Shown piece after piece: positions 42,951 to 58,574 of a stretch of DNA of 64,000 nt. The translations under genes were made by a program, and so were the position numbers. Numbering within the stretch: the stretch's first letter is position 1; every line of letters starts with the position of its first letter. The DNA is from Rubrivivax sp. (GTDB lineage Bacteria > Pseudomonadota > Gammaproteobacteria > Burkholderiales > Burkholderiaceae_C), in assembly GCA_021297985.1 (NCBI GenBank), contig JAJTGU010000015.1, forward strand, positions 1,083 to 65,082, written 5' to 3'. Below the pieces are notes generated by a model. That model worked only from the letters and a program-made list of their open reading frames with translations. It was not told the DNA's origin and did not search any database.

Positions 42951-42960
42951 CCCCGACCCA

Positions 42961-43045
42961 GGGCCCGCATGAGCGGGCCGTGACGGCTCTATCGCCCGCA
43001 TGAGTGGGCCACAAGACAACACCACGAGGGCGCGCATGACGCGAG
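42961..43045 (+). repeat. three tandem small hairpins with CATGA-containing loops in an intergenic spacer
   Basis: GGCCCGC-ATGA-GCGGGCC (about 42962-42979), GCCCGC-ATGA-GTGGGC (about 42993-43008) and CGCG-CATGA-CGCG (about 43030-43042). The CCCGCATG core recurs at the 43081 start codon. Confidence 0.45.
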
Positions 43046-43080
43046 GGACACAGAGGACAGGCACGACGGCGACAGCCCGC

Positions 43081-43851: not shown

Positions 43852-43869
43852 TCCTCCTCGAACACCTCC

Positions 43870-44520
43870 ATGTCATCGATCCGCCTGTTCGCTGCCCTCG
43901 CCCTGATGGCGACCGTTTCGGCTCACGGCCAGACGGCGGCGTCTTCGCCAGTACCCGCCGCCGCCTCGCCCCAGCCCATCGAACCGCGGGTCGTGCGGCG
44001 CGAGGTCAAGCTGCCGCGGTTCCCGAGCCGCGACTTCGAGGTCTCGGCCTTTGCCGGTAGCTATTCGACACAGAACTTTGGCAATGGCAACGTTTCCGGC
44101 TTCAAGCTGGGCTACCACATCACCGAAGACTTCTTCGTGCTCGCGACGGTCGGCCAGACCACCGTCAGCGACGAAAACTTCCGCCGCGTGCTGCCGGGCG
44201 GCCTGTTCGCCAAACCGGAGCAGAAACTGGACTACGCCAACGTCGCGGCCGGCTGGAACATCCTGCCCGGCGAGGTGTTCCTCGGCGGCAAGCGCGCGAT
44301 GCCGGCAGCGCTGTATCTCCTGGGCGGAATCGGCACGACCAAGTTCGCCGACCAGCGCAAGCAGACCGTGCACTACGGCTTCGGCTACCGCGTCTTCGTC
44401 TGGAATCGCTTTGCGATCAGCGCCGACGTTCGCCAGCACCACTTCGCGCTCGACCTGCTGGGTCGGCGCGAGACCACCCGCAATCCCGAGCTGAGCCTGA
44501 CCGCCAGCGTCTTCTTCTGA
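43870..44520 (+). CDS. outer-membrane beta-barrel protein
   Basis: Signal MSSIRLFAALALMATVSAHG. Alternating-hydrophobicity strands. Terminal ...LSLTASVFF. Confidence 0.8.
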   Translation: MSSIRLFAALALMATVSAHGQTAASSPVPAAASPQPIEPRVVRREVKLPRFPSRDFEVSAFAGSYSTQNFGNGNVSGFKLGYHITEDFFVLATVGQTTVSDENFRRVLPGGLFAKPEQKLDYANVAAGWNILPGEVFLGGKRAMPAALYLLGGIGTTKFADQRKQTVHYGFGYRVFVWNRFAISADVRQHHFALDLLGRRETTRNPELSLTASVFF

Positions 44521-44530
44521 CCCTGCCGCC

Positions 44531-45076
44531 ATGATGTCGACGCCCGATCTCGACCCGGCCCGCCGCACCTTTGCCGGCACCGTCGCCGCTGGCCTCACCG
44601 CCAGCCTGGTGGCGCCCTGGTTTGCCGGCGTGGCCCACGCCACAAGCGTCAAGCCCAAGGCGCTGCCGCCGGACTTCACGCTGCCCAGCAGCCTGGGGGG
44701 CAACCTGCGCCTGGCCGAGCAGCGCGGCCAGGTCGTGCTCGTGAACTTCTGGGCCACCTGGTGCGGCCCGTGCCTGATCGAGTTGCCGCACCTGAACCGG
44801 CTGCACGACAAGTACCGCAGCGCCGGCGTGCTGCTGCTGGGCGTTTCGGTGGACAACGACGCCAAGGCCGCCGCGGCGATGGCCAAGAAGCTCGACCTGC
44901 GCTTTGCCACGCTGTTCGACACCGCCAAGACCGTGAGCCGGGCCTGGGACCTGGACGCCATGCCCTCGACCGTGCTGCTGGACCGCGACGGCCGTGTCCG
45001 CCACATCCACCTCGGCTACCGCGACGGCCTGGAGAAGACCTACGAAGCCCAGCTCCGCGAGCTGGTCAAGGAGTGA
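44531..45076 (+). CDS. TlpA family thiol:disulfide oxidoreductase (Tat-like signal)
   Basis: ARRTFAG twin-arginine-like signal. Thioredoxin fold with VLVNFWATWCGPCLIELP. Confidence 0.9.
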   Translation: MMSTPDLDPARRTFAGTVAAGLTASLVAPWFAGVAHATSVKPKALPPDFTLPSSLGGNLRLAEQRGQVVLVNFWATWCGPCLIELPHLNRLHDKYRSAGVLLLGVSVDNDAKAAAAMAKKLDLRFATLFDTAKTVSRAWDLDAMPSTVLLDRDGRVRHIHLGYRDGLEKTYEAQLRELVKE

Positions 45077-45081
45077 GCGCG

Positions 45082-45327
45082 ATGCGACCAGAACGCGGCT
45101 TCGTCGGCACCTCGTTGGCGCTCGTGCTGGCGCTGCTCGGCAGCGGCTGCGCGATCAAGCCCATCGAGCCCTGGGTCAAGCCCTACGAGCGGGAGCGGCT
45201 CACCGACCCGGTGATGCAGTGGTCGCGCGCCAGCCTGGCCGACCGCCACCGCGAGCACATCCATTCGGTGCGCGAGGGCGCCCGCGGCGCGGTGGGCGTG
45301 CAAGGGGGCGGCTGTGGCTGCAACTGA
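45082..45327 (+). CDS. DUF4266 family small lipoprotein
   Basis: 81 aa. LALLGSGCAIKPIEPWVKPYERERL... ending in GGGCGCN, which I recall as the DUF4266 hallmark. The ATG lies 5 nt after the tlpA stop. Confidence 0.8.
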   Translation: MRPERGFVGTSLALVLALLGSGCAIKPIEPWVKPYERERLTDPVMQWSRASLADRHREHIHSVREGARGAVGVQGGGCGCN

Positions 45328-45340
45328 AGCCGGGACTTCT

Positions 45341-45487
45341 CCCACCCTCACCCCAGCCCTCTCCCGCCCTGCGGGAGAGGGGGCCGGAGAGCTTTCCCCA
45401 GAATTGGCAGGAGAGGGGGCCGTGGGACTGTGGCGCTGGCTGTCGAACTCCCTCTCCCGCTGGCGGGAGAGGGCAGGGGTGAGGGGG
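45341..45487. repeat. inverted pair of REP-like palindromic elements plus one partial copy
   Basis: Copy A is CCCTCACCCCAG + CCCTCTCCCGC-CCT-GCGGGAGAGGG (about 45345-45381). Copy B is CCCTCTCCCGC-TG-GCGGGAGAGGG + CAGGGGTGAGGG (about 45450-45485), the inverse of A. A partial copy GGCAGGAGAGGGGGCCG lies at about 45407-45422. Confidence 0.75.
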
Positions 45488-46561
45488 CTGTTCAGCGGAT
45501 TGGCGGCCGCTGGCGCGGCAACTGTCGCCCCGGCCGCGGTGCTGCCCGACGACAAGGCCGAGGCGATGTTCCACGTCTACGACGGCGGCGGGGTCAAGGC
45601 CGACGGCCCGGCTTTCCTGGTGCGCAAGAAGCTCGGCGAGCGGGTGTCGCTGTCGGCGGGCTACTACATCGACGCGGTCAGCAATGCCTCGATCGACGTC
45701 GTCACCACGGCCAGTCCGTTCAAGGAGAAGCGCACCGCCTGGGATTTCGGCGCCGACTGGCTGGTCGGCAACAGCGTGCTGACGCTGTCGGGCTCGACCA
45801 GCCGCGAGCCCGACTACGAGGCCAACGCCGTCAATGCCGATGTCGCGGCCGATGTCTTCGGTGGCATGACGACGCTCTCGCTCGGCTTCACGCGCGGCAG
45901 CGACCGGGTCGGACGGACCGACCGCCGCGAGGTGTTCTTCGACGACGTGCGGCGCTGGCAGTACCGCGCCGGCGTGACCCAGATCCTGTCGCCGCGCTGG
46001 CTGATGAGCCTGAACGCCGAGGCGATCTCCGAAGACGGCTACCTCGGCAGTCCGTATCGCGCGGCGCGCGTGTTCGGCGCCTTCGTGCCCGAACGGCTGC
46101 CACGCACGCGCACCGGCCGGGCCGTCAAGCTGCGCAGCCTGGCCGAGGTGCTGCCCGACACCGCGCTGCGGATCGAGGCGCGCGCCTACTGGGACACGTG
46201 GGATGTTCGCGGCCGCACGATCGAGATCGCCGGCACGCGAAAGTTCGGCCCGCAGTGGCTGCTCGACGTCTCGCTGCGCAGCCACAAGCAGACGGCGGCG
46301 CTGTTCTACGCCGACAACGCCCAGGTCGACACCGTCTTCGTGACACGCAACCGGCAGTTGTCGGCCTTCAACTCGCTGGGCCTGGGCGCCAAGCTGACCT
46401 GGAAGCCGGCCGCCGCCTGGGCCGAGCGCTACGGCGTGCAGGTCACCGGCGTGTTCGAGCGCAAGCGTTTCCGCTTCCCCGAGTTCATCGACCTGCGCAA
46501 CCAGCGACCCTACGCGTACGACGCCAACGTCATGCAAGTGGTGCTGGCCGGCCGCTTCTAG
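45479..46561 (+). CDS. DUF3570 family protein (putative OM beta-barrel)
   Basis: FHVYDGGGVKADGPAFLVRKKL...YYIDAVSNASIDVVTTASP..., with terminal ...VVLAGRF. GTG 45479 gives signal MRGLFSGLAAAGAATVAPAA. The ORF-track GTG 45314 would add a repeat-encoded N-terminus. The start is uncertain. Confidence 0.8.
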   Translation: MRGLFSGLAAAGAATVAPAAVLPDDKAEAMFHVYDGGGVKADGPAFLVRKKLGERVSLSAGYYIDAVSNASIDVVTTASPFKEKRTAWDFGADWLVGNSVLTLSGSTSREPDYEANAVNADVAADVFGGMTTLSLGFTRGSDRVGRTDRREVFFDDVRRWQYRAGVTQILSPRWLMSLNAEAISEDGYLGSPYRAARVFGAFVPERLPRTRTGRAVKLRSLAEVLPDTALRIEARAYWDTWDVRGRTIEIAGTRKFGPQWLLDVSLRSHKQTAALFYADNAQVDTVFVTRNRQLSAFNSLGLGAKLTWKPAAAWAERYGVQVTGVFERKRFRFPEFIDLRNQRPYAYDANVMQVVLAGRF

Positions 46562-46585
46562 ATTTCGCACCCCGAGGACCTTGCC

Positions 46586-47341
46586 ATGCATGGCCTGCTC
46601 GACACCTCGTTCGACACCACGATCGGCGAGCCGCCCGAAAGCGGTCGCCGCCGAACCCACTGGCTGAGCCGGCTGCTGGGCGTTGCCCTCGCGGTGGCGA
46701 TGCTGCTGCCGCTGCTGCTGGCGCTCTGGGCCTTGCCGGCCGGTGCGCAGGACAAGCCCGTGGCGCCCGCGGCCCCTGCCGCTGCCGCCGCGTCTGCTCC
46801 TGCAAGCGCGGCCTCCGCGCCGGAAGTCGCGGCGAGCGTGGCGAGTGCCGCGAGCGTTGCGAGCGCTGCCGCACCCGCAACGCCGCCCCCACCCCCAGCG
46901 CCGCTGGAAACCCGCATCCAGCAGCTCAAGGCCGATCTGATCCAGCTCAACCGCGACCTGCTGATCCTCGAAGAGGAGCTGCTGTTCCCGGCCGGCACCC
47001 AGGTCGCGATCTTCGTGTCGATGGACGTCGGCCGGCTGTTCGAGCTGGAGTCGGTGCGGGTCGTGCTCGACGACAAGGTCGTCGCCCAGCATCTGTACTC
47101 ACCGCTCGAGGTTCAGGCCCTGCACCGCGGTGGCGTGCAGCGCCTGGTGCTGGCCAACGTGAAGAGCGGCGAGCACCGGATCGATGCGTTCTTCACCGGC
47201 CGCGGCCCGCACGAGCGCGACTACAAGCGCGGCACCACGGTCAAGTTCGACAAGGGCAGCGAGCCGCGCTACATCGAGCTGCGCATCCGCGACGTGCAGG
47301 CCAAGCTGCAGCCCGAGTTCGAGGTCAAGGTTTGGCAGTGA
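46586..47341 (+). CDS. membrane-anchored or secreted coiled-coil protein, unknown function
   Basis: TM or signal segment WLSRLLGVALAVAMLLPLLLALWALPAGA. Ala/Pro/Ser-rich linker. Coiled coil LETRIQQLKADLIQLNRDLLILEEELL. Beta-rich C-terminal domain. Confidence 0.75.
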   Translation: MHGLLDTSFDTTIGEPPESGRRRTHWLSRLLGVALAVAMLLPLLLALWALPAGAQDKPVAPAAPAAAAASAPASAASAPEVAASVASAASVASAAAPATPPPPPAPLETRIQQLKADLIQLNRDLLILEEELLFPAGTQVAIFVSMDVGRLFELESVRVVLDDKVVAQHLYSPLEVQALHRGGVQRLVLANVKSGEHRIDAFFTGRGPHERDYKRGTTVKFDKGSEPRYIELRIRDVQAKLQPEFEVKVWQ

Positions 47342-49260
47342 TGCGCATCTGGCGCTGTTCTCGCGGGTTCATCGTCGCGGCCATGGGGTCGCTGGCGAGC
47401 CTGGCCGGCGCGCAGACGCTGCCGGCGGTGGAAGTGCGCGCGCCGCACTGGGGCGAGGTGCTGTTCCAGCACCACCAGGAACGCACGCTGGACACGCTGA
47501 TGGCGATCGGCGTGTCGCAGAACTTCGCCCGCCTGGCGCCGCACGCCGCCGAGGCCGAGCTGCTGCGGGGCGGCGTGCTGCTGGCCTGGGGCCAGCACGA
47601 CGACGCGGCCGCGGTCTTCGAGCGTGTGCTCGCCGATCCGGCCCTTCAGGCGGTGCACGACCGCGCCTGGTACCACCTCGCGCGGGTGCGTCACGAGCGC
47701 GGCGAGACGGCGGCGGCCGAAGCCGCGCTCGCGCGCATCGGCAGCCGCGAGCTGGCCAAGCCGCTGCAGATCGAACGGGTGCTGCTCGGCGCGCAATTGC
47801 GGCTCCTGCAGGGCGACGCCACCGGTTCGGCCGCGATCCTGAACACCTTGCCGCCCGGCGCTCCGACCGAAGCGACGCTGACGGCGCGCTTCAACCTCGG
47901 CGTCGCGCTGCTGCGCCAAGGTGACCGCGAAGGCGCGATCCGCTGGCTGCAGCTGGTGGGGCTGCACGGCCCGGCGCGCAACGACGAAGAGAAGGCCCTG
48001 CGCGACCGCGCCAACCTGGCGCTTGGCCTCGTTGCGCTGCGGGCCGGCGAGGGCACTGCGGCGGAGCTGGCGCTGAACCGAATCCGGCTGCAGGGGCCCG
48101 AGGCCGGGCGCGCGCTGCTGGCCCTGGGCTGGGCGCAGACGGTCGCCGGCCGGCCGCGCCAGGCGCTGGTGGCCTGGCGCACGCTGCTGTCGCCGGCGGG
48201 CTCGCCGGCCGTCGGCGACGGTGCCGTGCTCGAGGCCCACATCGCGCTGCCGCACGCACTGGCCGACCTGGGCGCGCCGACCCAGGCGCTGTCCGCCTAC
48301 GAGCAGGCCATCGCGCACTACGACCGCGAGCAGGGCGCACTGGCCAGCGCCGCCAAGGCGGTGGCCGACGGCAGCTTCATTCAGGCGCTGCTGGCGGCCA
48401 ACGCCGCGCCCGCGCTGCACGCCTGGGCCAGCGCGAGTGCATTGCCCGCGTCGCCGCCGCCGTACGCCGCGCAGCTGGCGCCGCTGATCGCCGAACACGC
48501 CTTCCAGGCCGGCTGGCGCCACCTGCGCGACCTGCGCCACTTCGATGGCCGCCTGGTCGATGCAAAAGCCCAACTCCAGATCTACGTGACCATGCTCGAC
48601 GAGCGGCGCGGCGCCTTCGAGCGCAAGCTGTCGCCCACGCGCGAGGCCGCCGCAGCGCGCTCGCCGGCACCGCTGCGCGAACGGCTCGCCGCGCTGAAGG
48701 TTGAACTCGACCGCGCCCAGGCCGAAGGCGACTGGGCCATGCTCGCCGACGCGCCGCTGCGTGCCTATGGCGAGCGCATCGAACGGTCACGCCGCACGCT
48801 GGCCGCGGCCGAACTGCCGCTGGACGCCGCGGCGCGGGACGAACTCACCGAGCGGCTGCGCCGAGCCGAAGGCGCGTGGACCTTTGCGCTGGCGCAGGGC
48901 CATGCCGATCGCGCCTGGCAGGCCACGAAGGCGCTGCGCGACGGCGAGCGCCAGCTCGTCGAGGCCGAGCGTCGCGACGCGTCTCTGGCGGCGGCCCAGG
49001 TCGACGAGCCCCGGCGGCTGGCCGCGCTGGCCGCGCGCATTGCCGCGCTGCAAACCCGCATCGACGGCCTTCAACCGAGGCTGGTCGCGCTGGCCAGCGA
49101 GCAGCAGGCGGTGCTGCAGACGGCACTCGGCGCCGAGATCGCGCAGCTCCAGGACAAGCTCGGTGGCTGGGCGCTGCAAGCCCGGTTTGCCAGCGCCCAG
49201 CTGCTCGACCAGGCGCAGCAGGCGCAGGCGGCCGGCAGCCCTGCGGGGAGCTTGCGGTGA
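47341..49260 (+). CDS. secreted TPR + long coiled-coil protein
   Basis: The ATG shares one nt with the upstream TGA. Signal MRIWRCSRGFIVAAMGSLASLAGAQ. TPR-like helical pairs are followed by an Ala/Leu/Arg/Gln-rich coiled coil. The 5' 1.9 kb of ORF 45430..49260 is shadow. Confidence 0.8.
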   Translation: MRIWRCSRGFIVAAMGSLASLAGAQTLPAVEVRAPHWGEVLFQHHQERTLDTLMAIGVSQNFARLAPHAAEAELLRGGVLLAWGQHDDAAAVFERVLADPALQAVHDRAWYHLARVRHERGETAAAEAALARIGSRELAKPLQIERVLLGAQLRLLQGDATGSAAILNTLPPGAPTEATLTARFNLGVALLRQGDREGAIRWLQLVGLHGPARNDEEKALRDRANLALGLVALRAGEGTAAELALNRIRLQGPEAGRALLALGWAQTVAGRPRQALVAWRTLLSPAGSPAVGDGAVLEAHIALPHALADLGAPTQALSAYEQAIAHYDREQGALASAAKAVADGSFIQALLAANAAPALHAWASASALPASPPPYAAQLAPLIAEHAFQAGWRHLRDLRHFDGRLVDAKAQLQIYVTMLDERRGAFERKLSPTREAAAARSPAPLRERLAALKVELDRAQAEGDWAMLADAPLRAYGERIERSRRTLAAAELPLDAAARDELTERLRRAEGAWTFALAQGHADRAWQATKALRDGERQLVEAERRDASLAAAQVDEPRRLAALAARIAALQTRIDGLQPRLVALASEQQAVLQTALGAEIAQLQDKLGGWALQARFASAQLLDQAQQAQAAGSPAGSLR

Positions 49261-52200
49261 CCCGTCGGCCCTTTGCTGCGCGGCGCACGCCGGCTCTTCT
49301 GGTCCTGGCCGCCACGGTGGCGGCGCTGCCCGGCTGCGGCCTGTTTCGCAGCAGCGAGCTCAAGCGGGCCGAGGCCACCGACACCGCGCCGACGCTGGCC
49401 TCGCTGGGCCAGCATGGCTCGACGGTGCTGCCCGACACGCGACTGCCGGTCACGCCGGCCAGCGAGGCCGCCGCCATCGCCGCCTGGCAGTCCTACCTGA
49501 AGGCCGCACCGGCCACCCCGGCAGAAGCTGCACGCCGCGCCGAGGCGCTGCGCCGCCTGGGCGACCTGGGCATGCTGCAGGCCGATCGCAAGGCGGCCGA
49601 GGCGCCGACGGTGGCCGCCGCCCCGGCCGCGTCACCCAGCCCCAGCCCTGCCGTGGTCGCAGCCGCCGCCGGGCCTGCAGCCGACGAACCCGACTACCGC
49701 GCCGCCGCCGCGCGCTACGAGGAGCGGCTGCGCCTGTTCCCTGGCGCGCCAGGTGAAGACACCGTGTTGTACCAGCTGGCGCGGGCCCAGGAGCAGGCGG
49801 CGTCGCTGCCCGGTGCGCCGGCCAATGCCCTGGACGTGCCGCTGGCCACGCTGACCCGCCTGGTCCAGCAGCACCCCGGCAGCGTGCATGCCGAAGAGGC
49901 GCAGTTCCGCCGTGGCGAGATCCTGTTCTCCAGCAGCCGCTGGGCGCAGGCCGAACGTGCTTACGCCGCGGTGCTGGCAACCACCGCGACGCAGCCGACC
50001 CGCGAGCCGTCGCCCCTGCGCGAACGGGCGCTCTACATGCAGGGCTGGTCGCTCTACAAGAGCAACCGCAGCGAAGAAGGCCTGCAGCCCTTCATGACCG
50101 TACTCGACCGGCTGATCGGCAGCGCGCCCGAGGCCGGCCGCGACCCGAGCCAGGACCCGGTGGCCGCCGCGCTGCCGGCACCGGCCAGTGCCGCGGCCGA
50201 CCCCTTGTCGCGTGCCGAGCGCGAGTTGCTGGCCGACACGCTGCGCATCGTCGGCATCACCCTGGCCGGGCTGCAGGGCACGAACAGCATCGCGCCTCTG
50301 GTGACGACGCCGATGCGCCGCGGCTACGAACACCGCCTGCACCAGGAGCTTGCGGCCTTGTACCTGCGCCAGGAGCGTGTCAAGGACGCGACCGACACCT
50401 TGACCGCCTTTGCCGCCGCGCAGCCGCTGCACCCGCAAGCGCCGGCGATGCTGTCGCAGAGCATCGCGGTGCTCGAGGCGGCGGGCTTCCAGACCCCGGC
50501 GCTGGCGGCCAAGCGCGACTTCGTGGCCCGCTACGGCGCCGGCAGCGCACTGCGCCAGCCGCACCCGGAGGTCTGGACCCAGGCCCAGCCGCTGGTCAAG
50601 GCGCACCTGCTGACGCTGGCCCGCCACCACCACGCCACGGCGCAGCAGACCGCGGGGGGGCCGAAGGCCGCCGCCGCAGCCGACGATGTCGCCCAGGCAC
50701 GGCGCTGGTACGGCGAGTTCATCGCGTCGTACCCGCAGGATGCGGCCACCCCGGGTCAGCACTTCCTGCTGGCCGAGCTGCTGCAGGACGCCGGCGCGGC
50801 GGCCGAGGCGGCGGTCGCGTTCGAGCAGGTCGCCTACCGCTACCCCAGCCATGCCCGCAGTGCCGATGCCGGCTACGCCGCGCTGCTGCTCGCACCGGCT
50901 GGCGACGCCGCCGGCCAGCGCCGTTTCGCCGAGCAGGCGGACCGCTTCGCCCAGACCTTCGAGCGCGACGGCCGCGCCGCCAGCGTGCTGGTCCGTGCCG
51001 CCGAGCTGCGCCTGGGCCTGGGCGACGCCACTGCGGCCACCACCACCGCCAAGGCGGCACTGGCCCGCGGTGGTGCCAGCGCAGCCGAGCAGCGCACCGC
51101 CTGGACGACCATCGCCCAGGCCGCGTTCGACGGCCGCGCCTACGCCGACGCCGAGGCCGCCTACACCGCGGCGCTGGCGGTCAATGTCACCGCCGTTGCG
51201 GGTGCTGCGGGTGCTGCCGGCGCTGCCGCTGCCGCGGGTCCCACCGCCTTGGGCGAACGCCGCGCGGCTGCCGTCTACCAGCAGGGCGACGAGGCCCGCC
51301 GCGCCAACCGCCTGAACGACGCGCTGGTGCACTTCGAGCGCCTGGCCGGCCTGACGCAGGACAGCACGCTGCTGGCGACCGCGGCCTTCGACGCCGCCAG
51401 CACCCGCGTCGCCTTGCGCGACTGGCCGGGCGCGGCCACGGCGCTGGTGGCCTTCCGCGAGCGTCACCGTGGCTCGCCCCTGGTGGCGCGCGTCACACCG
51501 CTGCTGGCCAATGCCTGGCTGCAGCAGGAGCGCTGGCTGCCCGCGGCGCAGGAGTTCGAGCGCCTGGCCGCTGAAGCCAGCGGCCCCGACGGCCCCGATC
51601 AGCGCCGGGCCGCGTTGTTCCAGGCCGCGACGCTGCACCAGCGCACGCTCGACGGCCTGAGCCGCCGCGGCCTGCTGCTGAGTTCGCAGACTGCGGTGAC
51701 GCAGCGCGCCTGGGAGCGTGTCCTGCGCGAGCCCGGCACGCCGGCGACGACCGCGACCCAGGTGCGCTGGGCACTGGCCGATCTGGCCGCCCGGCAAGGC
51801 GATGCGCCGCGTGAGCAGCAACTGCTGCAGGCGCTGCGTCGCGCCGAGGCTGCTGCGCCCGAGGCCGAGCGCAGCAGCGTCAGTCGCGATCTGGCGGCGC
51901 TGGCCACCATCCGCCTGGCCGAACCGCTGGCCGCCAGCTACCGACGCATCCCGCTGTCCGAACCGCTGCAACGCCAGTTCAAGCGCAAGAAGGCGGCACT
52001 GGACGAGGTGCTGGCGGCGTACCGACAAGCCGCCGACCTGGGCAGCAGTGGCGCGGTCAGCGCGGCCACCTTCCACACCGCGGCGCTGGTGCAGGACTTC
52101 GGCCAGGCCTTGATCAAGAGCGAGCGCCCGCGCCAGCTGAAGGGTGCAGCCCTGGAGCAGTACACCGTGATGCTGGAGGAACAGGCCTTCCCGTTCGAGG

Positions 52201-52358
52201 AACAGGCCATCGGCCTGCACGAGGCCAACGCCGCCCGTGCCCGCCAGGCCGGTGCCGACGAGTGGATGCGCAGGAGCCTGACCGAGCTCGCGCGGCTGAA
52301 GCCCGGCCGCTGGGCGCGCAACGAGATCGTCGAGGAGGTGATCGATGTCGCGCGCTGA
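49257..52358 (+). CDS. large TPR-repeat lipoprotein (1033 aa)
   Basis: The GTG start overlaps the upstream stop (GTGA). Lipobox LAATVAALPGC. TPR-like repeats run throughout. Confidence 0.8.
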   Translation: MTRRPFAARRTPALLVLAATVAALPGCGLFRSSELKRAEATDTAPTLASLGQHGSTVLPDTRLPVTPASEAAAIAAWQSYLKAAPATPAEAARRAEALRRLGDLGMLQADRKAAEAPTVAAAPAASPSPSPAVVAAAAGPAADEPDYRAAAARYEERLRLFPGAPGEDTVLYQLARAQEQAASLPGAPANALDVPLATLTRLVQQHPGSVHAEEAQFRRGEILFSSSRWAQAERAYAAVLATTATQPTREPSPLRERALYMQGWSLYKSNRSEEGLQPFMTVLDRLIGSAPEAGRDPSQDPVAAALPAPASAAADPLSRAERELLADTLRIVGITLAGLQGTNSIAPLVTTPMRRGYEHRLHQELAALYLRQERVKDATDTLTAFAAAQPLHPQAPAMLSQSIAVLEAAGFQTPALAAKRDFVARYGAGSALRQPHPEVWTQAQPLVKAHLLTLARHHHATAQQTAGGPKAAAAADDVAQARRWYGEFIASYPQDAATPGQHFLLAELLQDAGAAAEAAVAFEQVAYRYPSHARSADAGYAALLLAPAGDAAGQRRFAEQADRFAQTFERDGRAASVLVRAAELRLGLGDATAATTTAKAALARGGASAAEQRTAWTTIAQAAFDGRAYADAEAAYTAALAVNVTAVAGAAGAAGAAAAAGPTALGERRAAAVYQQGDEARRANRLNDALVHFERLAGLTQDSTLLATAAFDAASTRVALRDWPGAATALVAFRERHRGSPLVARVTPLLANAWLQQERWLPAAQEFERLAAEASGPDGPDQRRAALFQAATLHQRTLDGLSRRGLLLSSQTAVTQRAWERVLREPGTPATTATQVRWALADLAARQGDAPREQQLLQALRRAEAAAPEAERSSVSRDLAALATIRLAEPLAASYRRIPLSEPLQRQFKRKKAALDEVLAAYRQAADLGSSGAVSAATFHTAALVQDFGQALIKSERPRQLKGAALEQYTVMLEEQAFPFEEQAIGLHEANAARARQAGADEWMRRSLTELARLKPGRWARNEIVEEVIDVAR

Positions 52359-52398
52359 TTCGCCCTCGCAGGCCATCGCGCAGGCCATCGCTCAGGTG

Positions 52399-53157
52399 AT
52401 GCGCCGCGGCATCGTCGCTTTCGCGGTGGGCATGCTGGGCCTGTTCGCGGGTTGCGCGATGTTCGCCAAGCCGGCTGCGCCGCCGCCGGCCGCGGTGGCG
52501 GCAGTCTCGGCTCCCGCGCCCGCGGCATCGGCGCCGGACATCGCCCGCATCGTCGCGGCCTTGCCCGAGCCCGAACCCCGCGCAGCACCGGCGCAGGCCA
52601 GCCCCGGCGCCGAGCCCCAGCAGCCACCGCCGGCGCCGCCATTGCCACCGTTGCCGGCGGCCGTGCAGCAGGCCTTTGCTGCGGCCGTGACGTTGCAACG
52701 TGCCGGCCGTGCCGACGAGGCCGCATCGGCCTGGAAGGCCCTGCTGCGCGAGCAACCCGAGTTGGCCGGCGCACACGCCAACCTCGGCCTGCTGCACCGC
52801 AAGGCCGGACGCCTCGACGAGGCCATCGTGGCGCTCGAGCGCGCGGTGCAACTGAGCCCGCGGCAGGCGGCTTTCAGCAACCAGTTCGGCATCGCGCTGC
52901 GCCAGGCCGGTCGGTTCGCCCAGGCCCGCCAGGCCTATGAACAAGGCCTGGCGGCGCAGCCCGAGCACGCGGCCAGCCACTTCAATCTGGCGATCCTGCT
53001 GGACCTGTACCTCGGCGACCGCGACGCGGCACTGACGCACTACCAGCGGGCCCAGGTCCTGCTGCCCGAGCAGGCGCCGCAGGTCCAGCGCTGGGTCGCG
53101 GAGCTGAAGAACCGCAAACCCGACGCGCCGCTCGCGTTGCGCAAGGAGAAGGAGTGA
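52399..53157 (+). CDS. TPR-repeat lipoprotein
   Basis: MRRGIVAFAVGMLGLFAGC signal plus lipobox; ATG 52345 is an alternative start. Pro-rich linker. Three or four TPRs (AGRADEAASAWKALL..., AGRLDEAIVALERAV..., AGRFAQARQAYEQGL...). Confidence 0.8.
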   Translation: MRRGIVAFAVGMLGLFAGCAMFAKPAAPPPAAVAAVSAPAPAASAPDIARIVAALPEPEPRAAPAQASPGAEPQQPPPAPPLPPLPAAVQQAFAAAVTLQRAGRADEAASAWKALLREQPELAGAHANLGLLHRKAGRLDEAIVALERAVQLSPRQAAFSNQFGIALRQAGRFAQARQAYEQGLAAQPEHAASHFNLAILLDLYLGDRDAALTHYQRAQVLLPEQAPQVQRWVAELKNRKPDAPLALRKEKE

Positions 53158-53555
53158 TGGTGTCGCTGCCCTTCACCCCACACGCCCTCGGTGTGGCCTG
53201 TCTGGTGTTCGCGACCGGTGCATTGGCACAGACGCGGACCGCGCGTCCTGCCGCCGCCGCGCCGTCGGCTCCTGTGGCGGCCGTGGCTGGGGCCGCGTCC
53301 GCTGCCGAACCCGCGTCGCCCGACCGCGCCGAGCTCGAACGCACCCAGATCACCGGCAGCCGCGAGCTGCCCAAGGTGCTGTACATCGTGCCCTGGAAGA
53401 AGCCGCCACCCGGCCAGCCCATCGCGCGGCCCGAGCGCAGCGTGATCGATGACGCGTTGTTGCCCATCGAGCGCGCGGTGCTGCAACGCCAGATCGGATA
53501 TCACCGGCAACTCGCCACACCGGCCGCCGGCGGCACCGCTGCACTGCGGCCCTGA
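53154..53555 (+). CDS. small secreted protein, unknown function
   Basis: ATGA overlap. Signal MMVSLPFTPHALGVACLVFATGALA. Conserved-looking ELPKVLYIVPWKKP block. Confidence 0.7.
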   Translation: MMVSLPFTPHALGVACLVFATGALAQTRTARPAAAAPSAPVAAVAGAASAAEPASPDRAELERTQITGSRELPKVLYIVPWKKPPPGQPIARPERSVIDDALLPIERAVLQRQIGYHRQLATPAAGGTAALRP

Positions 53556-53620
53556 GTCCACGTTCCGCCCCATTCCGAACCTCTACCAAACGCTGCCCGA
53601 AAGCCCATCGAAAGCCTGCC

Positions 53621-54280
53621 ATGAACACGCTGCAAACCGTCATCAAGTTCTTCCAGGACTGCGGACCCTTTCTCTACCCCAGCCTGATCCTGATGACCCT
53701 GGGCCTGGCGATCGCCATCGAGCGCTGGATCTTCCTGCGCCGCGCGCGCAGCGAGAACCGCGAGCTGTGGGACCGCATGCTGCCGCTGCTGCAAGGGGGC
53801 AAGCTCGACGAGGTCGGCAAGCTCGCGTCGGCCAGCCCGGCCGCGGTCGGCCGCATCGTCGCCAACGGCCTCGAGCGGCTGCCCAGCGCCCGCAAGCGCG
53901 AGGACATCGACGCCGCGATGGAAGAAGGAATGATGGAGATCGTGCCGCGCCTTGAGAAGCGCACCCACTACATCGCCACCTTCGCCAACGTCGTCACCCT
54001 GGTCGGCCTGCTGGGCACCATCATCGGGCTGATCAAGGGCTTCACGGCGGTGGCGTCGGTCAACCCGGCCGAAAAGGCCGAGATGCTGTCGGCCAGCATC
54101 TCGATCGCGATGAACAACACCGCGTTTGCGCTGATGGTCGCGATCCCCTTCCTGCTGATACACGCCTTCCTGCAGGCCCGCGCGAGCGAGATCGTCGACA
54201 GCCTCGAAGCCGCCAAGATCACCTTCCTGAACCTGGTGCAGCGCCTGGCGGCGGAGCGTCAGCAGCCGACCGCCCGTTGA
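53621..54280 (+). CDS. MotA/TolQ/ExbB proton-channel family protein
   Basis: Three TM helices and TLVGLLGTIIGLIKGF...AMNNTAFALMVAIPFLLIH, typical of ExbB/TolQ. Confidence 0.92.
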   Translation: MNTLQTVIKFFQDCGPFLYPSLILMTLGLAIAIERWIFLRRARSENRELWDRMLPLLQGGKLDEVGKLASASPAAVGRIVANGLERLPSARKREDIDAAMEEGMMEIVPRLEKRTHYIATFANVVTLVGLLGTIIGLIKGFTAVASVNPAEKAEMLSASISIAMNNTAFALMVAIPFLLIHAFLQARASEIVDSLEAAKITFLNLVQRLAAERQQPTAR

Positions 54281-54317
54281 TCGGCGTGTCGACCGCCCAC
54301 CCGAACCGACCCGCGCC

Positions 54318-54821
54318 ATGAAACGCAGACGCTTGAAGCGAACCGCCGCGCATCTGGAGATCACGGCGTTCATCAACCTGATCGTCGTGCTCGTGCCCTT
54401 CTTGCTGTCCACCGCGGTGTTCTCGCGCCTGGCGGTGATGGAGCTGAAGCTGCCCGCACCCAGCACCGCCGAAGGCCCGCTCGCGGCCGAAGACCTGAAG
54501 CTCGAGGTCGTGATCCGCAAGAACAGCTTTGAAGTCGGCGACCGCATCGGCGGCCTGTTCGCGACCGTGCAGCGCACGGCCACGGGCGGCGATGCCGCGG
54601 CGTTGAAGGAGCTGAACGGCGTGCTCGTGCAGGTCAAGGCGCGCTGGCCGCAGGCCCGCGAGGCGACCGTGCTGTCCGAGCCCGACACGCCTTACGACCA
54701 CGTCGTGCAGGTGATGGAGCAGCTGCGCAGCACCGTCACCGTGCACGAGGGTAAGCCGATGCGGGCCGAGCTGTTCCCGCTGATCGCGGTCGGCGACGCG
54801 CCGCTGCGCGCCAGGAGCTGA
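54318..54821 (+). CDS. ExbD/TolR family biopolymer transport protein (paralogue 1)
   Basis: N-terminal basic segment plus TM (LEITAFINLIVVLVPFLL). Periplasmic ExbD-like domain. Confidence 0.9.
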   Translation: MKRRRLKRTAAHLEITAFINLIVVLVPFLLSTAVFSRLAVMELKLPAPSTAEGPLAAEDLKLEVVIRKNSFEVGDRIGGLFATVQRTATGGDAAALKELNGVLVQVKARWPQAREATVLSEPDTPYDHVVQVMEQLRSTVTVHEGKPMRAELFPLIAVGDAPLRARS

Positions 54822-54826
54822 TCGCC

Positions 54827-55315
54827 ATGCTGACGCCCCGCCAACGTCGCAGCGAACACAAGAAGCGCCATGGCGACATGGTCGACATGAACCTGGTGTC
54901 GCTGATCGACGTGTTCACGATCCTGATCTTCTTCCTGCTGTTCAGCGCCAGCGGTGTCGAGGTGCTGACCACGCCCAAGGCGGTGAAGCTGCCGGTCGCC
55001 GAGAGCGAGGAGGTCCCCAAGCCGACACTGGTGCTGGTCATCTCCAACGAGGACATCCTGGTCGACGGCCGGCTCGTGATGTCGCTGCGCGACGCGATGG
55101 CCGCCGAGGGCGACGTGCTCGCGCCGCTGAAGGCCGCGCTCGACGTGCAGTCCCAGCGCGTGGCCATCAAGGCCGATGCCTCGCCGACCCAGGCCATCAC
55201 GATCATGGGTGACCGCAGCATCCCCTGGGCGGTGCTCAAGCGCGTGATGGCCAGCTGCGCCGCGGCGAACTACGCCGATGTGTCGCTGGCCCTCAGCAAG
55301 CGGGACGGCGTATGA
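54827..55315 (+). CDS. ExbD/TolR family biopolymer transport protein (paralogue 2)
   Basis: DMNLVSLIDVFTILIFFLL carries the conserved Asp in the TM helix. Periplasmic ExbD-like domain. Confidence 0.9.
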   Translation: MLTPRQRRSEHKKRHGDMVDMNLVSLIDVFTILIFFLLFSASGVEVLTTPKAVKLPVAESEEVPKPTLVLVISNEDILVDGRLVMSLRDAMAAEGDVLAPLKAALDVQSQRVAIKADASPTQAITIMGDRSIPWAVLKRVMASCAAANYADVSLALSKRDGV

Positions 55316-56466
55316 CGGCCGCCAGCATCTCCATGGGTGAGGGCTTCGGTGGCCGGGCCCGGCGCGAGCGTGCCGGCGAGTTCTCGAGCCGCGTGCTGCC
55401 CTGGGCGACCTCGGCCGCCGACGAACAGCGCTTCTGGCGCATCGCCCGCCGCATCGGCATCCTGATGCTGGTGCTCGGCGTGGCGCTGCCCTTCCTGCCG
55501 CGGCCTGAGAAGTCGCTGGACCGCATCGAGCCATTGCCGGCACCGATGGCGCGGCTGCTGCTCGAAGGCCAGAAACCGCCGCCTCCGCCACCGCCCAAGC
55601 CGGTGGCCGAGACCCCGCCGCCGCCGCAAGCGACGGCCGCCGCCAAGCCCGAGCCGCGTGCCACGCGGCCCGAGGACCGCAAGGCCGCGCGCGTGCCCGA
55701 GGCGCGCAACCCGGTCGAAGGCAAGCCCCCGGGCGAGGCCGCGATCGAAGTCGCGCGTCGCCAGGCCATGGGCGTCGGCCTGCTCGCCATGAAGGCCGAG
55801 CTGTCGCAGATGGCCGCCGGCGCGCCGCTGGCCGCGCAGCTGAAGAAGGACATCCCCCCCGGGCCGGGCGTCGGCACCGGCCAGGGACCCGGCGTGGGCA
55901 TGGGCAGCGACCCGGGCCTGCCGGCGCGTGCGCTGCTGACCGCGGCCGGAGGCCGGCCCTCGGGCAGCGGCGGCATCAACACCGCCGCCTACAGCCGCGA
56001 CACCGGCGGCGGAGGCCTGGCCGGGCGCAGCAGCACGCTGGTCGAAGGTGTCGCCTCGGGCGGTGGTGGGGGCGGCCCGGGCGGCGGCGGTGGCGGGCGA
56101 ACCGGCGGCACCGGGGTCGGCGGCGGCAGTGCGGGGGCCGCCAACACCGCGGTCGCCAAGGGCGGCAGTGGCAAGGCGAGCCGCTCGATCGAGGAGATCA
56201 AGCTCGTCTTCGAACGCCACAAGGGCGCGATCTACGCGCTGTACCAGCGCGCGCTGCGCGACGATCCGGCCTTGCAGGGCAAGGTCGTGCTCGAACTCAA
56301 GATCGCCCCCAGCGGCGAGGTGCTGGCCTGCCGCGTGCTGTCCAGCGAGCTGAAGTCACCGGAGCTGGAGAACAAGCTGCGCGCCCGCGTGCAGGGCTTC
56401 GACTTCGGCGCCAAGGACGTTGCCGAGATCGTGGTCTCGTGGCCGGTGGACTTCTTGCCGAGCTGA
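55312..56466 (+). CDS. TonB-like energy-transducer protein with an AgmX/PglI-type C-terminal domain
   Basis: ATGA overlap. One TM (IARRIGILMLVLGVALPFL). Pro-rich (KPPPPPPPKP) and Gly-rich (GGGGGGPGGGGGG) linkers. C-terminal IKLVFERHKGAIYALYQRALRDDPALQGKVVLELKIAPSGEVLACRVL. Confidence 0.85.
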   Translation: MTAASISMGEGFGGRARRERAGEFSSRVLPWATSAADEQRFWRIARRIGILMLVLGVALPFLPRPEKSLDRIEPLPAPMARLLLEGQKPPPPPPPKPVAETPPPPQATAAAKPEPRATRPEDRKAARVPEARNPVEGKPPGEAAIEVARRQAMGVGLLAMKAELSQMAAGAPLAAQLKKDIPPGPGVGTGQGPGVGMGSDPGLPARALLTAAGGRPSGSGGINTAAYSRDTGGGGLAGRSSTLVEGVASGGGGGGPGGGGGGRTGGTGVGGGSAGAANTAVAKGGSGKASRSIEEIKLVFERHKGAIYALYQRALRDDPALQGKVVLELKIAPSGEVLACRVLSSELKSPELENKLRARVQGFDFGAKDVAEIVVSWPVDFLPS

Positions 56467-56495
56467 GCGATCGACGCGCGCCATCCCGCACGCCG

Positions 56496-58574
56496 TCACC
56501 ACACCGCGATCGGCTCGCTGGCCATCATCGGCTCGCCGGGCTTGCAGCCGAAGGCCTGGCCGAAAGCGGGCAGGTTGGACAGCGGGCCGCGGACGCGGAA
56601 CGGCCCCGGCGAGTGCTGGCCGGTGCGGATCTGGCTGATCAGCGCCTCGTCGCGGTAACGGGTGCGCCAGATCGCGGCGTTGGCGACGAAGAACCGCTGC
56701 TCCGGCGACAGGCCGTCGATCGGCGCCACCGGCTTGCCCTGCGCCCGCTGGCGCGCCAGCAGCAGCTGCAGGCCGTCGTAGGCGATGCGGATGCCGGCGA
56801 CGTCGGAGATGTTCTCGCCCAGCGTCTGGCGGCCGTTCAGGAACTGTCCGGGCAGTGGCTGATAACTGCCATACAAGGTGGCCACACGGTCGGCGCGGGC
56901 GCGGTAGGCGGCGGCGTCCTCCGGGGTCCACCAGTCCTTGAGGTTGCCGTCGGCGTCGAACTGGCGCCCGCGGTCGTCGAAGTGGTGCGTGATCTCGTGG
57001 CCGATGACGCTGCCGATGGCGCCGTAGTTCACCGCGTCGTCGGCACGCTCATCGAAAAGCGGCGGCTGCAGGATGCCGGCCGGGAAGACGATGCGGTTCG
57101 GGGATCCGGCAAAGGCGTTGACGATGTGCGGCGCCGTGGTCCAGCGGTTTCGGTCCACCGGGCGGTCGAGGTCGGCGATGCGCCGGGCCTGGTCCCAGGC
57201 CGACAGGCGAAGCTGGTTGCCGGCGTAGTCGTCGGCCTTCAGCTCCAGCCCCGGGTAGCGTGGCCATTCCGACGGGCCGCCGATCTGCAAAGCCATCGCG
57301 TCGAGCTTGGCCAGCGCCTTGGTGCGCGTGGCCGGGGCCATCCAGTCCAGGCCGCGGATTCGCTGGCGCATCGCTTCCTTGACGTCGTCCACCATCGCAC
57401 TGGCCTTGGCCTGGGCGGTGGCCGAAAACGCGCGGCTGACGTAGAGCTCGCCGATCGCCAGGCCCAGCGGCTCGCCGCCGGTGCGCCCACCCAGCTCCCA
57501 GACGACCTGCTCGGACCGCGGTGGTGCCCGCCGGATGCCGCGCACCGCGGTCTCGTGGTACGCGAAGTGGCTGCCGGCCAGAGCCTTGGGCAACTGCGGC
57601 GCCAGGTCGTCGAGCAGGCGCACCCGCAGGTAGCGCTGCCAGTCCGCCAGCGGTGCCTGCTGCACCAGCCGGGCCATCGCGGTCGCGAACGCGGGTTGCG
57701 ACAGCACGAAGCGGCGCTGATCCGGCGGCGTGTTGGCGCTCGTGCCTTGCAGAACCGCGCCCAGGTAGGCCGACCAGTCGAAGCCCGGGGCGCGTTCTGC
57801 CAGCGCCTTCAGGTCGCTGCGGTTGTTGGTGGCCTGCGGGTCGCGCCGTTGCACGCGCGTCAGGGTTGCGTCGGCGAGCTGTCGTTCGAAGGCCAGCAGT
57901 GCGTCGATCGCGGCCTCGTCGTGCGCGGCACCGGCGGCACGCAGCAGGTTCGCGGCGTGCACACGGTAGGCGGCCGTCACGCGCTGCGTCGTCGTGTCGG
58001 TCTTGAAGTAGTCGTCACGGTCGGGCAGGCCCAGGCCTTCGTTGCCCAGATAAAGCTCATGGCGACGCGTGTCTTCGGTGTCCGGGCTGACCCACGCCGT
58101 CAGCGGCGCGGCGATGCGGTGGCGGGCCAGGTCCGCCAGCAGCGCCGGCAGCTCGGCCGTGCTCTTCAGCGCCGCGATGCGCGCCAGCCAGGGTGCCACT
58201 GCGGCCAGGCCCGCGCGTTCGATGCCGGCTTCGTCCATCGCGGCGCGGTAGGCGCTGGCAAGCAGCTTGAGCCCCGGCGACGTGGCGCGGGCCGGGTCGG
58301 CCAGCAGCTCGGCCAGAGCCGTTTCGAGCAGGCGGCTGTTGGCGATGCGCAGCTCGTCGAAGCTGCCGATGCGGCCGCGGTCTTCGGGCAGCACGGTGCG
58401 CGCCAGCCAGCCGGCGTTGACGTGGGTGTAGAAGTCCTGGCAGGCGCTGGTGGCCAGGTCGCGTCCGGCGAGGTCGAGCACCGGTGCCTGCGCCGGTGCA
58501 GCGGCTGCACTGCACGCGGCGGCCAGCGCCAAGGCCGCGAAGGCGGCGTGGGGGTTGCGGTCAGACATGGGCAC
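56496..58574 (-). CDS. M13 family zinc metallopeptidase (PepO/endothelin-converting-enzyme-like)
   Basis: HEITHHFD zinc motif, ENISDVAG, and an N-terminal signal/lipobox-like ALALAAAC. Start is ATG 58574 or 58568. Confidence 0.92.
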   Translation of the reverse strand: MPMSDRNPHAAFAALALAAACSAAAAPAQAPVLDLAGRDLATSACQDFYTHVNAGWLARTVLPEDRGRIGSFDELRIANSRLLETALAELLADPARATSPGLKLLASAYRAAMDEAGIERAGLAAVAPWLARIAALKSTAELPALLADLARHRIAAPLTAWVSPDTEDTRRHELYLGNEGLGLPDRDDYFKTDTTTQRVTAAYRVHAANLLRAAGAAHDEAAIDALLAFERQLADATLTRVQRRDPQATNNRSDLKALAERAPGFDWSAYLGAVLQGTSANTPPDQRRFVLSQPAFATAMARLVQQAPLADWQRYLRVRLLDDLAPQLPKALAGSHFAYHETAVRGIRRAPPRSEQVVWELGGRTGGEPLGLAIGELYVSRAFSATAQAKASAMVDDVKEAMRQRIRGLDWMAPATRTKALAKLDAMALQIGGPSEWPRYPGLELKADDYAGNQLRLSAWDQARRIADLDRPVDRNRWTTAPHIVNAFAGSPNRIVFPAGILQPPLFDERADDAVNYGAIGSVIGHEITHHFDDRGRQFDADGNLKDWWTPEDAAAYRARADRVATLYGSYQPLPGQFLNGRQTLGENISDVAGIRIAYDGLQLLLARQRAQGKPVAPIDGLSPEQRFFVANAAIWRTRYRDEALISQIRTGQHSPGPFRVRGPLSNLPAFGQAFGCKPGEPMMASEPIAVW

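Follow-up and report, generated by a model that had tools for sequence, protein, structure and literature searches.

We examined a 64,000-nucleotide stretch of a Rubrivivax sp. genome (Burkholderiales; contig JAJTGU010000015.1), called the window here at its full length, for a putative envelope-spanning motor encoded at 46586-56466 of the plus strand, which the original prediction had likened to the core of the Myxococcus Agl-Glt/Nfs machineries. Since the G+C content of the window is about 70%, raw lists of open reading frames (ORFs) were crowded with spurious frames, and they were resolved by codon-position GC (GC3 frame) analysis, ORF calling and start-site inspection. The interval is filled exactly by nine tightly packed, co-directional genes (g2-g10), five of whose eight junctions overlap (g2 and g3 share 1 base, the others 4-14 bases), with gaps of 5-65 nt at the remaining ones; the whole looks like a single operon. 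A promoter and terminator scan of 37000-56900 returned counts not above those in shuffled sequence. The composition read from the sequence at the outset was recovered in full: one ExbB/TolQ gene and two ExbD/TolR genes (a MotA_ExbB match in g7, ExbD matches in g8 and g9), a large coiled-coil protein with tetratricopeptide repeats (TPR) together with TPR lipoproteins (TPR in g3, g4 and g5, lipoboxes in g4 and g5), and a small secreted protein that bears a signal peptide (g6). A Pfam/NCBIfam scan of the cluster and its neighbouring genes found no TonB-dependent receptor, TolB, Pal or YbgC in or beside it, as had been remarked for the receptor: DUF3570, DUF4266 and thioredoxin genes lie upstream, and genes for an M13 peptidase and a UvrD helicase lie downstream on the opposite strand.

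Table 1 Positions of the cluster genes, of the poly-Gly tract and of the upstream genes in the window, with the Methylibium petroleiphilum PM1 genes and their assignments in Luciano et al. 2011 (Table S3).
Feature	Position	Strand	Description	PM1 gene and assignment
g2	46586-47341	+	251 aa; secreted, cleavable N-terminal signal/transmembrane segment; first gene of cluster	
g3	47341-49260	+	639 aa; GltC position; soluble periplasmic, type I signal peptide (AGA/Q cleavage)	Mpe_A1224, 634 aa; GltC/MXAN_2541
g4	49257-52358	+	1033 aa; GltD position; large TPR lipoprotein, lipobox LPGC, Gly at +2	Mpe_A1225, 941 aa; GltD
g5	52345-53157	+	270 aa; GltE position; TPR lipoprotein, lipobox FAGC, Ala at +2	Mpe_A1226, 243 aa; GltE
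g6	53154-53555	+	133 aa; small secreted protein, type I signal peptide	Mpe_A1227; not listed in Table S3
g7	53621-54280	+	219 aa; AglR-type ExbB/TolQ/MotA-family proton-channel subunit	Mpe_A1228, 217 aa; AglR
g8	54318-54821	+	167 aa; first ExbD/TolR paralogue, AglQ position	Mpe_A1229, 170 aa; MXAN_6861 (AglQ)
g9	54827-55315	+	162 aa; second ExbD/TolR paralogue, AglS position	Mpe_A1230, 163 aa; MXAN_6860 (AglS)
g10	55312-56466	+	384 aa; GltG-type TonB/TolA-like transducer, bitopic	Mpe_A1231, 371 aa; GltG
Poly-Gly tract of g10	56059-56127	+	GGGGGGPGGGGGGRTGGTGVGGG; residues 250-272, just before the C-terminal domain	
LytS-type histidine kinase	34868-36487	+	head of co-directional array	
LytTR response regulator	36911-37855	+	head of co-directional array	
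ApbE	37927-39243	+	flavinylation-associated module	
1023-aa secreted protein	39253-42324	+	hydrazine-synthase-alpha (HZS-alpha) middle domain, 68.5 bits; C-terminal CXXCH haem motif	
218-aa protein	42294-42950	+		
SH3-plus-barrel protein	42973-43851	+	N-terminal SH3 domain, small outer-membrane beta-barrel	
TIGR04565 (OMP_myx_plus) outer-membrane barrel	43870-44520	+	119 bits, cutoff 60	
TlpA/ResA-like thioredoxin	44531-45076	+	Tat-like RR signal	
DUF4266 lipoprotein	45079-45327	+	ends in GGGCGCN	
DUF3570	about 45479-46561	+		

An ancestral Agl/Glt "core complex" was defined by Luciano et al. 2011 as GltC-GltD-GltE-extra gene-AglR-AglQ-AglS-GltG, whose genes lie together in a single betaproteobacterium, in several gammaproteobacteria and in both Geobacter and Fibrobacter, in hosts not known to glide and with a function given as unknown; Wartel 2013 termed it a probable "basal transport machinery", and it is the presumed ancestor of the gliding (Agl-Glt) and spore-coat (Agl-Nfs) machines of Myxococcus. 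The betaproteobacterial example is Mpe_A1224-A1231 of Methylibium petroleiphilum PM1 (Table S3 of Luciano et al. 2011), and g3-g10 match these genes one for one in a comparison of order and size; g6 is probably the counterpart of the unlisted Mpe_A1227. Because order and sizes agree with this core complex, the original prediction was right in its interpretation, as it was in stating that comparative work on Myxococcus had proposed such a core, of unknown function, in beta- and gammaproteobacteria. We consider it likely that the locus encodes a stand-alone Agl/Glt-type core machine orthologous to Mpe_A1224-A1231, a reading to which the gene order and sizes, the AgmX/PglI tail of g10 and the closeness of g7 to the AglR of a Glt cluster all contribute. 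The two loci share their gene order, near-identical gene sizes and the same Rubrivivax-Methylibium host group of Burkholderiales; they come from different species and differ in that the window adds a conserved 5' gene, g2, whereas the paper mentions a single extra gene, in that g4 is about 90 aa longer, and in the longer Gly linker of g10. The kind of locus was already described in 2011 and would not surprise a specialist in Myxococcus motility.

The C-terminus of the transducer-like protein g10 had been held to be AgmX/PglI (GltJ/GltG)-like and not classic TonB, and the profile scores bear this out. Its AgmX/PglI C-terminal domain (residues 293-381, 56188-56454) passed NF033768 at 61 bits (cutoff 40), a model that all 63 orthologues tested also matched at E <= 0.001, but stayed under the cutoffs of Pfam TonB_C PF03544 (15.7 bits vs 24.6) and of TIGR01352 TonB_Cterm (24.1 bits vs 27.1). 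The GltG equivalog scored 39 bits and aligned residues 229-378 (150 residues) to model positions 496-642, so that the likeness to GltG reaches about 60 residues upstream of the C-terminal domain. The protein begins with a cytoplasmic N-terminus of about 47 aa that holds a conserved LPW..RFRR motif, followed by a transmembrane helix at about residues 48-62 (IGILMLVLGVALPFL) in which there is no His, and hence no TonB SHLS motif. Beyond the membrane come a Pro-rich spacer, the conserved segments AR..A..GLL and SGGINTA..SR.TGG.GLAGR.TT.V, and a Gly-rich linker. Matches of the whole protein in the PDB were artefacts of this linker, and the C-terminal domain alone retrieved TonB chains at E 0.57. 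Homologues of g10 numbered 3171 at E <= 1e-5, the named ones being "AgmX/PglI C-terminal domain-containing protein", mostly from Rubrivivax.

The poly-Gly tract noted earlier at about 56050-56120 is present (Table 1), while its description as unusual did not hold. Glycine makes up mostly 32-50% of the 80 aa before the C-terminal domain in Burkholderiales and in Thioalkalivibrio XN8, with runs typically of 7, and 5-28% in most gammaproteobacterial orthologues, with runs of 1-5. The orthologue alignment is gapped at the tract, and we rejected it as a functional peculiarity, given its gapped, variable linker position and its confinement to high-GC lineages; on the alignment, it is a lineage-specific, variable and flexible linker.

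For comparison we used locus L085, a Glt-type cluster of a Bacteriovoracaceae genome that is one representative from an exhaustive g7 search. The g7 protein matched PF01618 MotA_ExbB at 92.5 bits and fell under every TolQ and ExbB equivalog cutoff; it was 36% identical (E 9e-41) to the AglR of L085, against 21-22% for E. coli TolQ and ExbB (TolQ 21%). Judged by pairwise identity, g7 would thus group with AglR and not with TolQ/ExbB. Its best PDB sequence matches were ExbB and TolQ at about 29 bits, and no AglR or GltG structure appeared in the PDB sequence searches. The Thr residues of the second and third transmembrane helices are kept (T133, T167), Ile occupies the position of TolQ E173/ExbB E176, and a pentamer is presumed. 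Identity as a Zorya or flagellar stator was ruled out, the ZorA and MotA matches scoring 13-18 bits.

The two ExbD paralogues (PF02472 ExbD: 52 bits for g8, 54.8 bits for g9) differ at the proton-binding position. In g8, Asn20 (codon 54375-54377) aligns with TolR D23 and ExbD D25 of E. coli, and the 75 orthologues carry Asn in 71 cases and Asp in 4; the C-terminal motif of g8 is LFPxIxxGDAP. In g9, by contrast, the transmembrane Asp28 (codon 54908-54910) is an Asp in 75 of 75 orthologues. Both ExbD paralogues of L085 carry Asp, and a review reports the same for Myxococcus AglQ and AglS. The four loci with an Asp-bearing first paralogue are L061, L065 and L066 (Nevskia) and L067, all others having Asn; these Nevskia loci and L067 may show the core motor in its ancestral form. 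The GltG-like and g2 proteins of the same four loci were also the most divergent.

The motor genes are preceded by five genes for secreted proteins. Of these, g2 consistently opens the cluster and is newly recognised here as its fifth conserved periplasmic gene. Its product runs from a signal/transmembrane segment through an Ala/Pro-rich linker and a coiled-coil helix to a beta-sandwich at the C-terminus, and it matched no Pfam or NCBIfam family. In nearly every locus with sufficient flank, tblastn placed a g2 match directly upstream of the GltC-like gene; among 6683 database homologues, the named ones in the matches listed were nearly all "hypothetical protein". The AlphaFold2 (AF2) model of g2 had a predicted local distance difference test score (pLDDT) of 71, with 80-90 in the beta-sandwich. 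Foldseek matches of g2 were of a generic beta-sandwich kind (cytolysin domain 4, HGSNAT luminal domain, PepT2 extracellular domain) and were rejected; since none reached E <= 0.001, the fold search assigns no function. The gene may differ from the single "extra gene" of Luciano et al. 2011.

The localisation signals of the other parts fit their Myxococcus counterparts, g4 and g5 being lipoproteins, g3 soluble and periplasmic, and g10 bitopic. In g3 a Pfam TPR region at the N-terminus is followed by a C-terminal coiled coil. The Gly at +2 of the g4 lipobox predicts sorting to the outer membrane, and in a profile-profile comparison the g4 family matched the Bacteriovoracaceae family at the GltD position, that of the 954-aa protein of L085, with Prob 82% and E 1e-5 over only 118 columns, at equivalent N-terminal positions. 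In the profile scan no GltD model came up for g4 or for this L085 protein. Strong TPR matches in Pfam characterise g5, for which an internal Met at 52399 (MRRGIVAF...) offers an alternative start: the longer form adds 18 residues (MSRADSPSQAIAQAIAQV) and the shorter one opens directly with a typical lipoprotein signal (MRRGIVAFAVGMLGLFAGC); the latter is the more plausible. The product of g6 has a disordered Ala/Pro-rich N-terminal half, then one strand and one helix, with the conserved motif GN.ELPKVLYIVPWK...P..S.LDE.LAP.DR.VFRRQ..Y; g6 and 26 orthologues matched no family, and tblastn detected the gene in 76 of the 81 loci searched. This layout recalls that of GltF, by analogy with a 2025 AlphaFold model (PMC11761067) in which GltF gives a strand to the C-terminal domain of GltG and a helix to GltC.

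A genome scan with a 10-sequence AglR-type alignment, covering one genome per species, identified at least 80 loci. Those listed belong to Burkholderiales and Gammaproteobacteria, with no Myxococcus, Geobacter or PM1 locus among the matches listed. Among these same loci, AglR identity was 68-83% in Burkholderiales of the Rubrivivax/Aquabacterium/Rhizobacter/Methylibium/Piscinibacter group and 50-61% in many Gammaproteobacteria, with hosts such as Woeseiaceae, Thioalkalivibrio, Nevskia, Fontimonas, Steroidobacteraceae, Acidiferrobacterales, Lentisalinibacter and Maricurvus. An "uncultured Methylibium sp." (L026) has the same cluster at 75% AglR identity. When the window proteins were searched by tblastn, all nine genes g2-g10 were colinear in 37 of the 42 loci with enough flank, each of the other five lacking one gene at the detection threshold; because of this colinearity, the nine-gene arrangement is more than chance. 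Three loci deserve separate mention. In Rubrivivax rivuli (L001, 4458-7871) the GltD-like and GltE-like proteins were called as one 1137-aa ORF, inside which the g5 match lies at 7590; the two are naturally fused there, or else the gene calling or the sequencing produced an artefact. A Burkholderiales-type cluster with 74% AglR identity carries the label "Acidobacteriota bacterium" (L015; contig JBLNAI010000015.1, 699 kb), and a gamma-type cluster the label "uncultured Enterobacteriaceae" (L069); both labels point to mislabelled or misbinned metagenome-assembled genomes or to horizontal transfer.

The Bacteriovoracaceae cluster was compared part by part. Its GltC-like protein scores 99 bits under NF033756, and its FHA-bearing GltG 125 bits under NF033760 and 63.5 bits under NF033768; it also encodes a TIGR04565 barrel, an 85-aa protein, AglR, two ExbD proteins, a 954-aa protein and a 282-aa TPR protein. 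In pairwise BLAST between the two clusters AglR alone was significant. Window-type profiles set against single Bacteriovoracaceae sequences in hhalign gave weak matches (GltD position 12.8%, GltC position 6.6%, small protein 0.2%, barrel 0.2%), and the profile-profile run on the GltD position was the one with a usable signal. With the Myxococcus Agl-Glt and Agl-Nfs systems the cluster shares an AglR-type channel, two different ExbD/TolR paralogues, an AgmX/PglI-tailed TonB-like transducer, TPR lipoproteins at the GltD/NfsD position (a large one) and at the GltE/NfsE position, a soluble TPR protein at the GltC/NfsC position and an adjacent small secreted protein. Unlike Myxococcus, whose machine is spread over three loci, it holds its genes in one operon, has no FHA domain on the GltG-like protein and no GltJ, GltI, GltH, GltK, CglB or cytoplasmic platform link, and places Asn where Myxococcus AglQ has an essential Asp. 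Profile searches gave no classical ExbBD-TonB or TolQRA placement, and the C-terminus of g10 is not canonical TonB_C only, the two outcomes that would have spoken against an Agl/Glt core.

Several observations weigh against this assignment. The likeness of three TPR proteins to GltD, GltE and GltC, seen from the start, stood in position, size and localisation signals, whereas the NCBIfam GltC and GltE models gave it no support: g3 scored 16 bits under the GltC model NF033756 (cutoff 450), which 2 of 24 orthologues matched, g5 scored 36.5 bits under the GltE model NF033758 (cutoff 225), and generic TPR families outscored both models on these proteins. The GltC and GltE assignments are therefore putative ones, drawn from position, size, localisation signals and the 2011 phylogeny, just as orthology to Mpe_A1224-A1231 is proposed from size, order, the published table and the related locus L026. 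Between g6 and its 85-aa positional counterpart in the Bacteriovoracaceae cluster there was no significant similarity, and a single-sequence AF2 model of a chimera of g6 with the linker and C-terminal domain of g10 (pLDDT 44) gave no information on strand addition. No FHA domain was matched in g10; GltG carries two, one of them modelled to grip AglR (PMC11761067), and g10 is without them. AglQ D28N paralyses the Myxococcus machine (Wartel 2013), and the Asn of g8 is this same Asp-to-Asn change, so that the motor may work unlike AglRQS. Finally, we found no published experiment on a stand-alone core outside Myxococcus and Bdellovibrio.

All genes from 34868 to 56466 lie on the plus strand, headed by a LytS/LytTR pair that may regulate the downstream genes. 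ApbE, thioredoxin, DUF4266 and DUF3570 correspond to a published flavinylation-associated module (Meheust et al. 2021, PMC8238504). Where a published [S/T]GA[S/T] flavinylation motif would stand, the DUF3570 protein of the window reads SNAS (first 120 residues); the exact motif was found nowhere in the whole protein, in which SNAS was the sole pattern match. The SH3-barrel and the TIGR04565 barrel are paralogous (hhalign Prob 86.7%, E 4.4e-6), and the Myxococcus barrels GltA and GltB, themselves paralogues, bind GltC. At least one relative (L008) likewise encodes a protein of the 1023-aa HZS-alpha-like kind upstream of the cluster. About 150 nt between DUF4266 and DUF3570 (45340-45490) make up an inverted-repeat element that is highly structured, with two palindromic cores (CCCTCTCCCGC..GCGGGAGAGGG) and an RNA fold of -114.8 kcal/mol (z = -5.9), and that translates as a "LTPALSRPAGEGA"-type peptide at the apparent N-terminus of DUF3570. 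Because the DUF4266 and DUF3570 genes of Rubrivivax rivuli (L001) overlap with no insert, the element looks like an insertion of the repetitive extragenic palindromic (REP) or miniature inverted-repeat transposable element (MITE) type, and DUF3570 probably starts near 45479.

The genes upstream bear on what the motor may act upon. We think it rather unlikely, on present evidence, that the motor energises or positions an outer-membrane redox assembly made of the barrel pair, a flavinylated DUF3570, DUF4266, thioredoxin, ApbE and the 1023-aa HZS-alpha-like haem protein, a proposal that names a cargo for the Agl/Glt-type core and not another machine. From ApbE (37927) to g10 (56466) the genes form one co-directional, tightly spaced array, and parts of it recur elsewhere. 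Of 18 Burkholderiales-type (beta-type) loci, 17 carry a thioredoxin gene no more than 2.5 kb upstream of g2, as do 13 of 25 gamma-type loci. DUF3570, DUF4266 and the TIGR04565 barrel were found in 17 of the 18 beta-type loci, the SH3-barrel in 16; the first three of these genes were seen again in Thioalkalivibrio XN8, L062, L075 and L077. In addition, a TIGR04565 barrel flanks GltC in L085. These linkages make a functional tie between redox module and motor possible, as they do a role of the barrel pair as outer-membrane partner of the motor; the pair recalls GltB/GltA, as a candidate only. However, DUF3570 is adjacent in 17 of 18 beta-type and only 1 of 25 gamma-type loci, in most gamma-type loci neither DUF3570 nor the barrels lie within 10 kb, and in many of them thioredoxin alone of the upstream block precedes g2. 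The ApbE/DUF3570/DUF4266/thioredoxin module is moreover widespread without Agl/Glt genes (PMC8238504), the adjacency may be lineage-specific gene order only, and homology of the barrels to GltA/B is unproven because the window barrel family misses the Bacteriovoracaceae barrel at E < 1e-3.

What was observed directly is the set of genes, their domain families and localisation signals, their synteny and conservation, and the Asn/Asp asymmetry. From this we infer a mechanism for the Agl/Glt-type core by analogy with TolQ5R2-TolA, ExbB5D2-TonB and AglR5QS-GltG, its stoichiometry, contacts, force direction and cargo included. The Myxococcus model (PMC11761067) comprises AglR5-AglQ-AglS-GltG, with GltG wrapped on GltD and a GltF strand added to the GltG C-terminal domain. 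In the Rubrivivax core, a pentamer of the AglR-like g7 would enclose a g8/g9 heterodimer in the inner membrane, and protons would pass via a single protonatable Asp (g9 Asp28), driving rotation or a conformational stroke that would be handed to the transmembrane helix of the GltG-like g10. The Pro-/Gly-rich periplasmic arm of g10 would cross the peptidoglycan, and its AgmX/PglI domain with the preceding conserved segments would dock on the outer-membrane-anchored g4, which would also hold the GltE-like g5 and the soluble GltC-like g3. The g6 protein, and possibly g2, would serve as adaptors, with g6 perhaps contributing a beta-strand to the g10 C-terminal domain, as modelled for GltF/GltG. The output would be pulling or positioning of an outer-membrane or periplasmic partner, dependent on the proton-motive force (PMF), and not nutrient import; in Burkholderiales, the barrel pair and the redox module are cargo candidates.

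A variant of this scheme gives more weight to the asymmetry of the ExbD paralogues. The core would then be more than a reduced AglRQS-Glt, namely a distinct asymmetric motor with one proton-conducting plug helix, coupled in Burkholderiales to the barrel pair and redox set, that positions or gates an extracytoplasmic redox assembly. The AglQ-position subunit would have permanently lost its proton-binding Asp, the ancestral Asp being kept only in the Nevskia group and L067, and the outer-membrane module, a GltA/B-like TIGR04565 barrel pair together with a flavinylated DUF3570/DUF4266/thioredoxin/haem set, would be PMF-powered. We put this forward tentatively and hold it to be improbable as a whole.

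A second Tol-Pal-like system is somewhat less probable still. Here g7/g8/g9 would be TolQR, g10 TolA and the TPR proteins CpoB/YbgF-like, serving outer-membrane tethering, lipid homeostasis or septal constriction. Agl and Tol are described as evolutionarily related motors sharing one logic, and Tol-Pal has in common with the window a 5:2-type proton channel, a bitopic transducer with a long periplasmic arm and a small C-terminal domain, TPR accessory proteins and, in both probably, PMF-dependent action on outer-membrane lipoproteins. The best NCBIfam match of g7 was TolQ (62.2 bits), g9 scored 29.7 bits against TolR, g10 weakly matched TolA (21 bits), and g3 and g4 reached 26.7 and 51.4 bits under the YbgF/CpoB TPR model, but all these scores are far under the equivalog cutoffs (TolQ 221, TolR 127.3, TolA 59.45 and YbgF/CpoB 90.1 bits). 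The missing TolB, Pal and YbgC, the AgmX/PglI type of the g10 C-terminal domain and the much greater closeness of g7 to the Glt-cluster AglR than to TolQ also tell against it, as does the plug, a one-Asp heterodimer in the window and a TolR homodimer with Asp in canonical Tol.

It is highly improbable that the genes encode a classical TonB-ExbB-ExbD energiser, with ExbD duplicated as in Xanthomonas exbD1/exbD2, that powers receptors encoded elsewhere. Such a system would account for the membership of g7-g9 in the MotA_ExbB and ExbD Pfam families, for the 62 of 63 g10 orthologues that also match TIGR01352 at E <= 0.001, and for the TonB chains nearest to the g10 C-terminal domain in the PDB, which were not significant. 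Yet g10 is under both TonB C-terminal thresholds and over that of AgmX/PglI, lacks the SHLS motif and has no receptor gene next to its own; the exbB and ExbD equivalogs scored 32.8 bits (cutoff 206.2) and 20.8 bits (cutoff 216), and the motor genes always come together with those for three TPR proteins and two small secreted ones, which are absent from classical Ton systems. ExbB-ExbD-TonB and Vibrio TonB2 systems share with the window the motor superfamilies and the fold class of the C-terminal domain, and TonB2 also a TPR protein linked to the motor (TtpD). Compared with Vibrio TonB2 (TtpB/TtpC/ExbB2/ExbD2/TonB2/TtpD), however, the cluster has no DUF3450/TtpB and no long TtpC-type or second MotA_ExbB protein, and the profile check suggested for this system came out under cutoff (exbB2 37.6 bits vs 135.35, ExbD_2 20.6 vs 123.45). 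A working gliding or spore-coat machine like Agl-Glt/Agl-Nfs can be all but dismissed, since the core parts are common to both machines but domain scans found no ZnR-GYF (GltJ) or giant TPR (GltI) gliding part in the cluster, GltH, GltK, CglB and an FHA-bearing GltG were not found there either, and g8 has the Asn that paralyses AglQ.

New here are the nine-gene colinearity, the Asn/Asp asymmetry, the FHA-less GltG-like protein, the lineage-specific poly-Gly linker, and the flavinylation module and barrel pair conserved upstream in Burkholderiales. The Agl/Glt-type core is a regular feature of Rubrivivax/Methylibium-group Burkholderiales and of many environmental Gammaproteobacteria, and no one-genome oddity. 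In annotation, genes of the g7-g10 type should not be called TonB/ExbBD iron-uptake components. The natural Asp-to-Asn change in g8 offers a concrete way to learn how the proton sites of heterodimeric 5:2 motors are used, and the conserved upstream barrels and redox genes are candidate partners of the machine. The core is the proposed ancestor of two well-studied Myxococcus machines, and its own function is testable because some members of the Rubrivivax/Methylibium group and of the Gammaproteobacteria are culturable and genetically manipulable.

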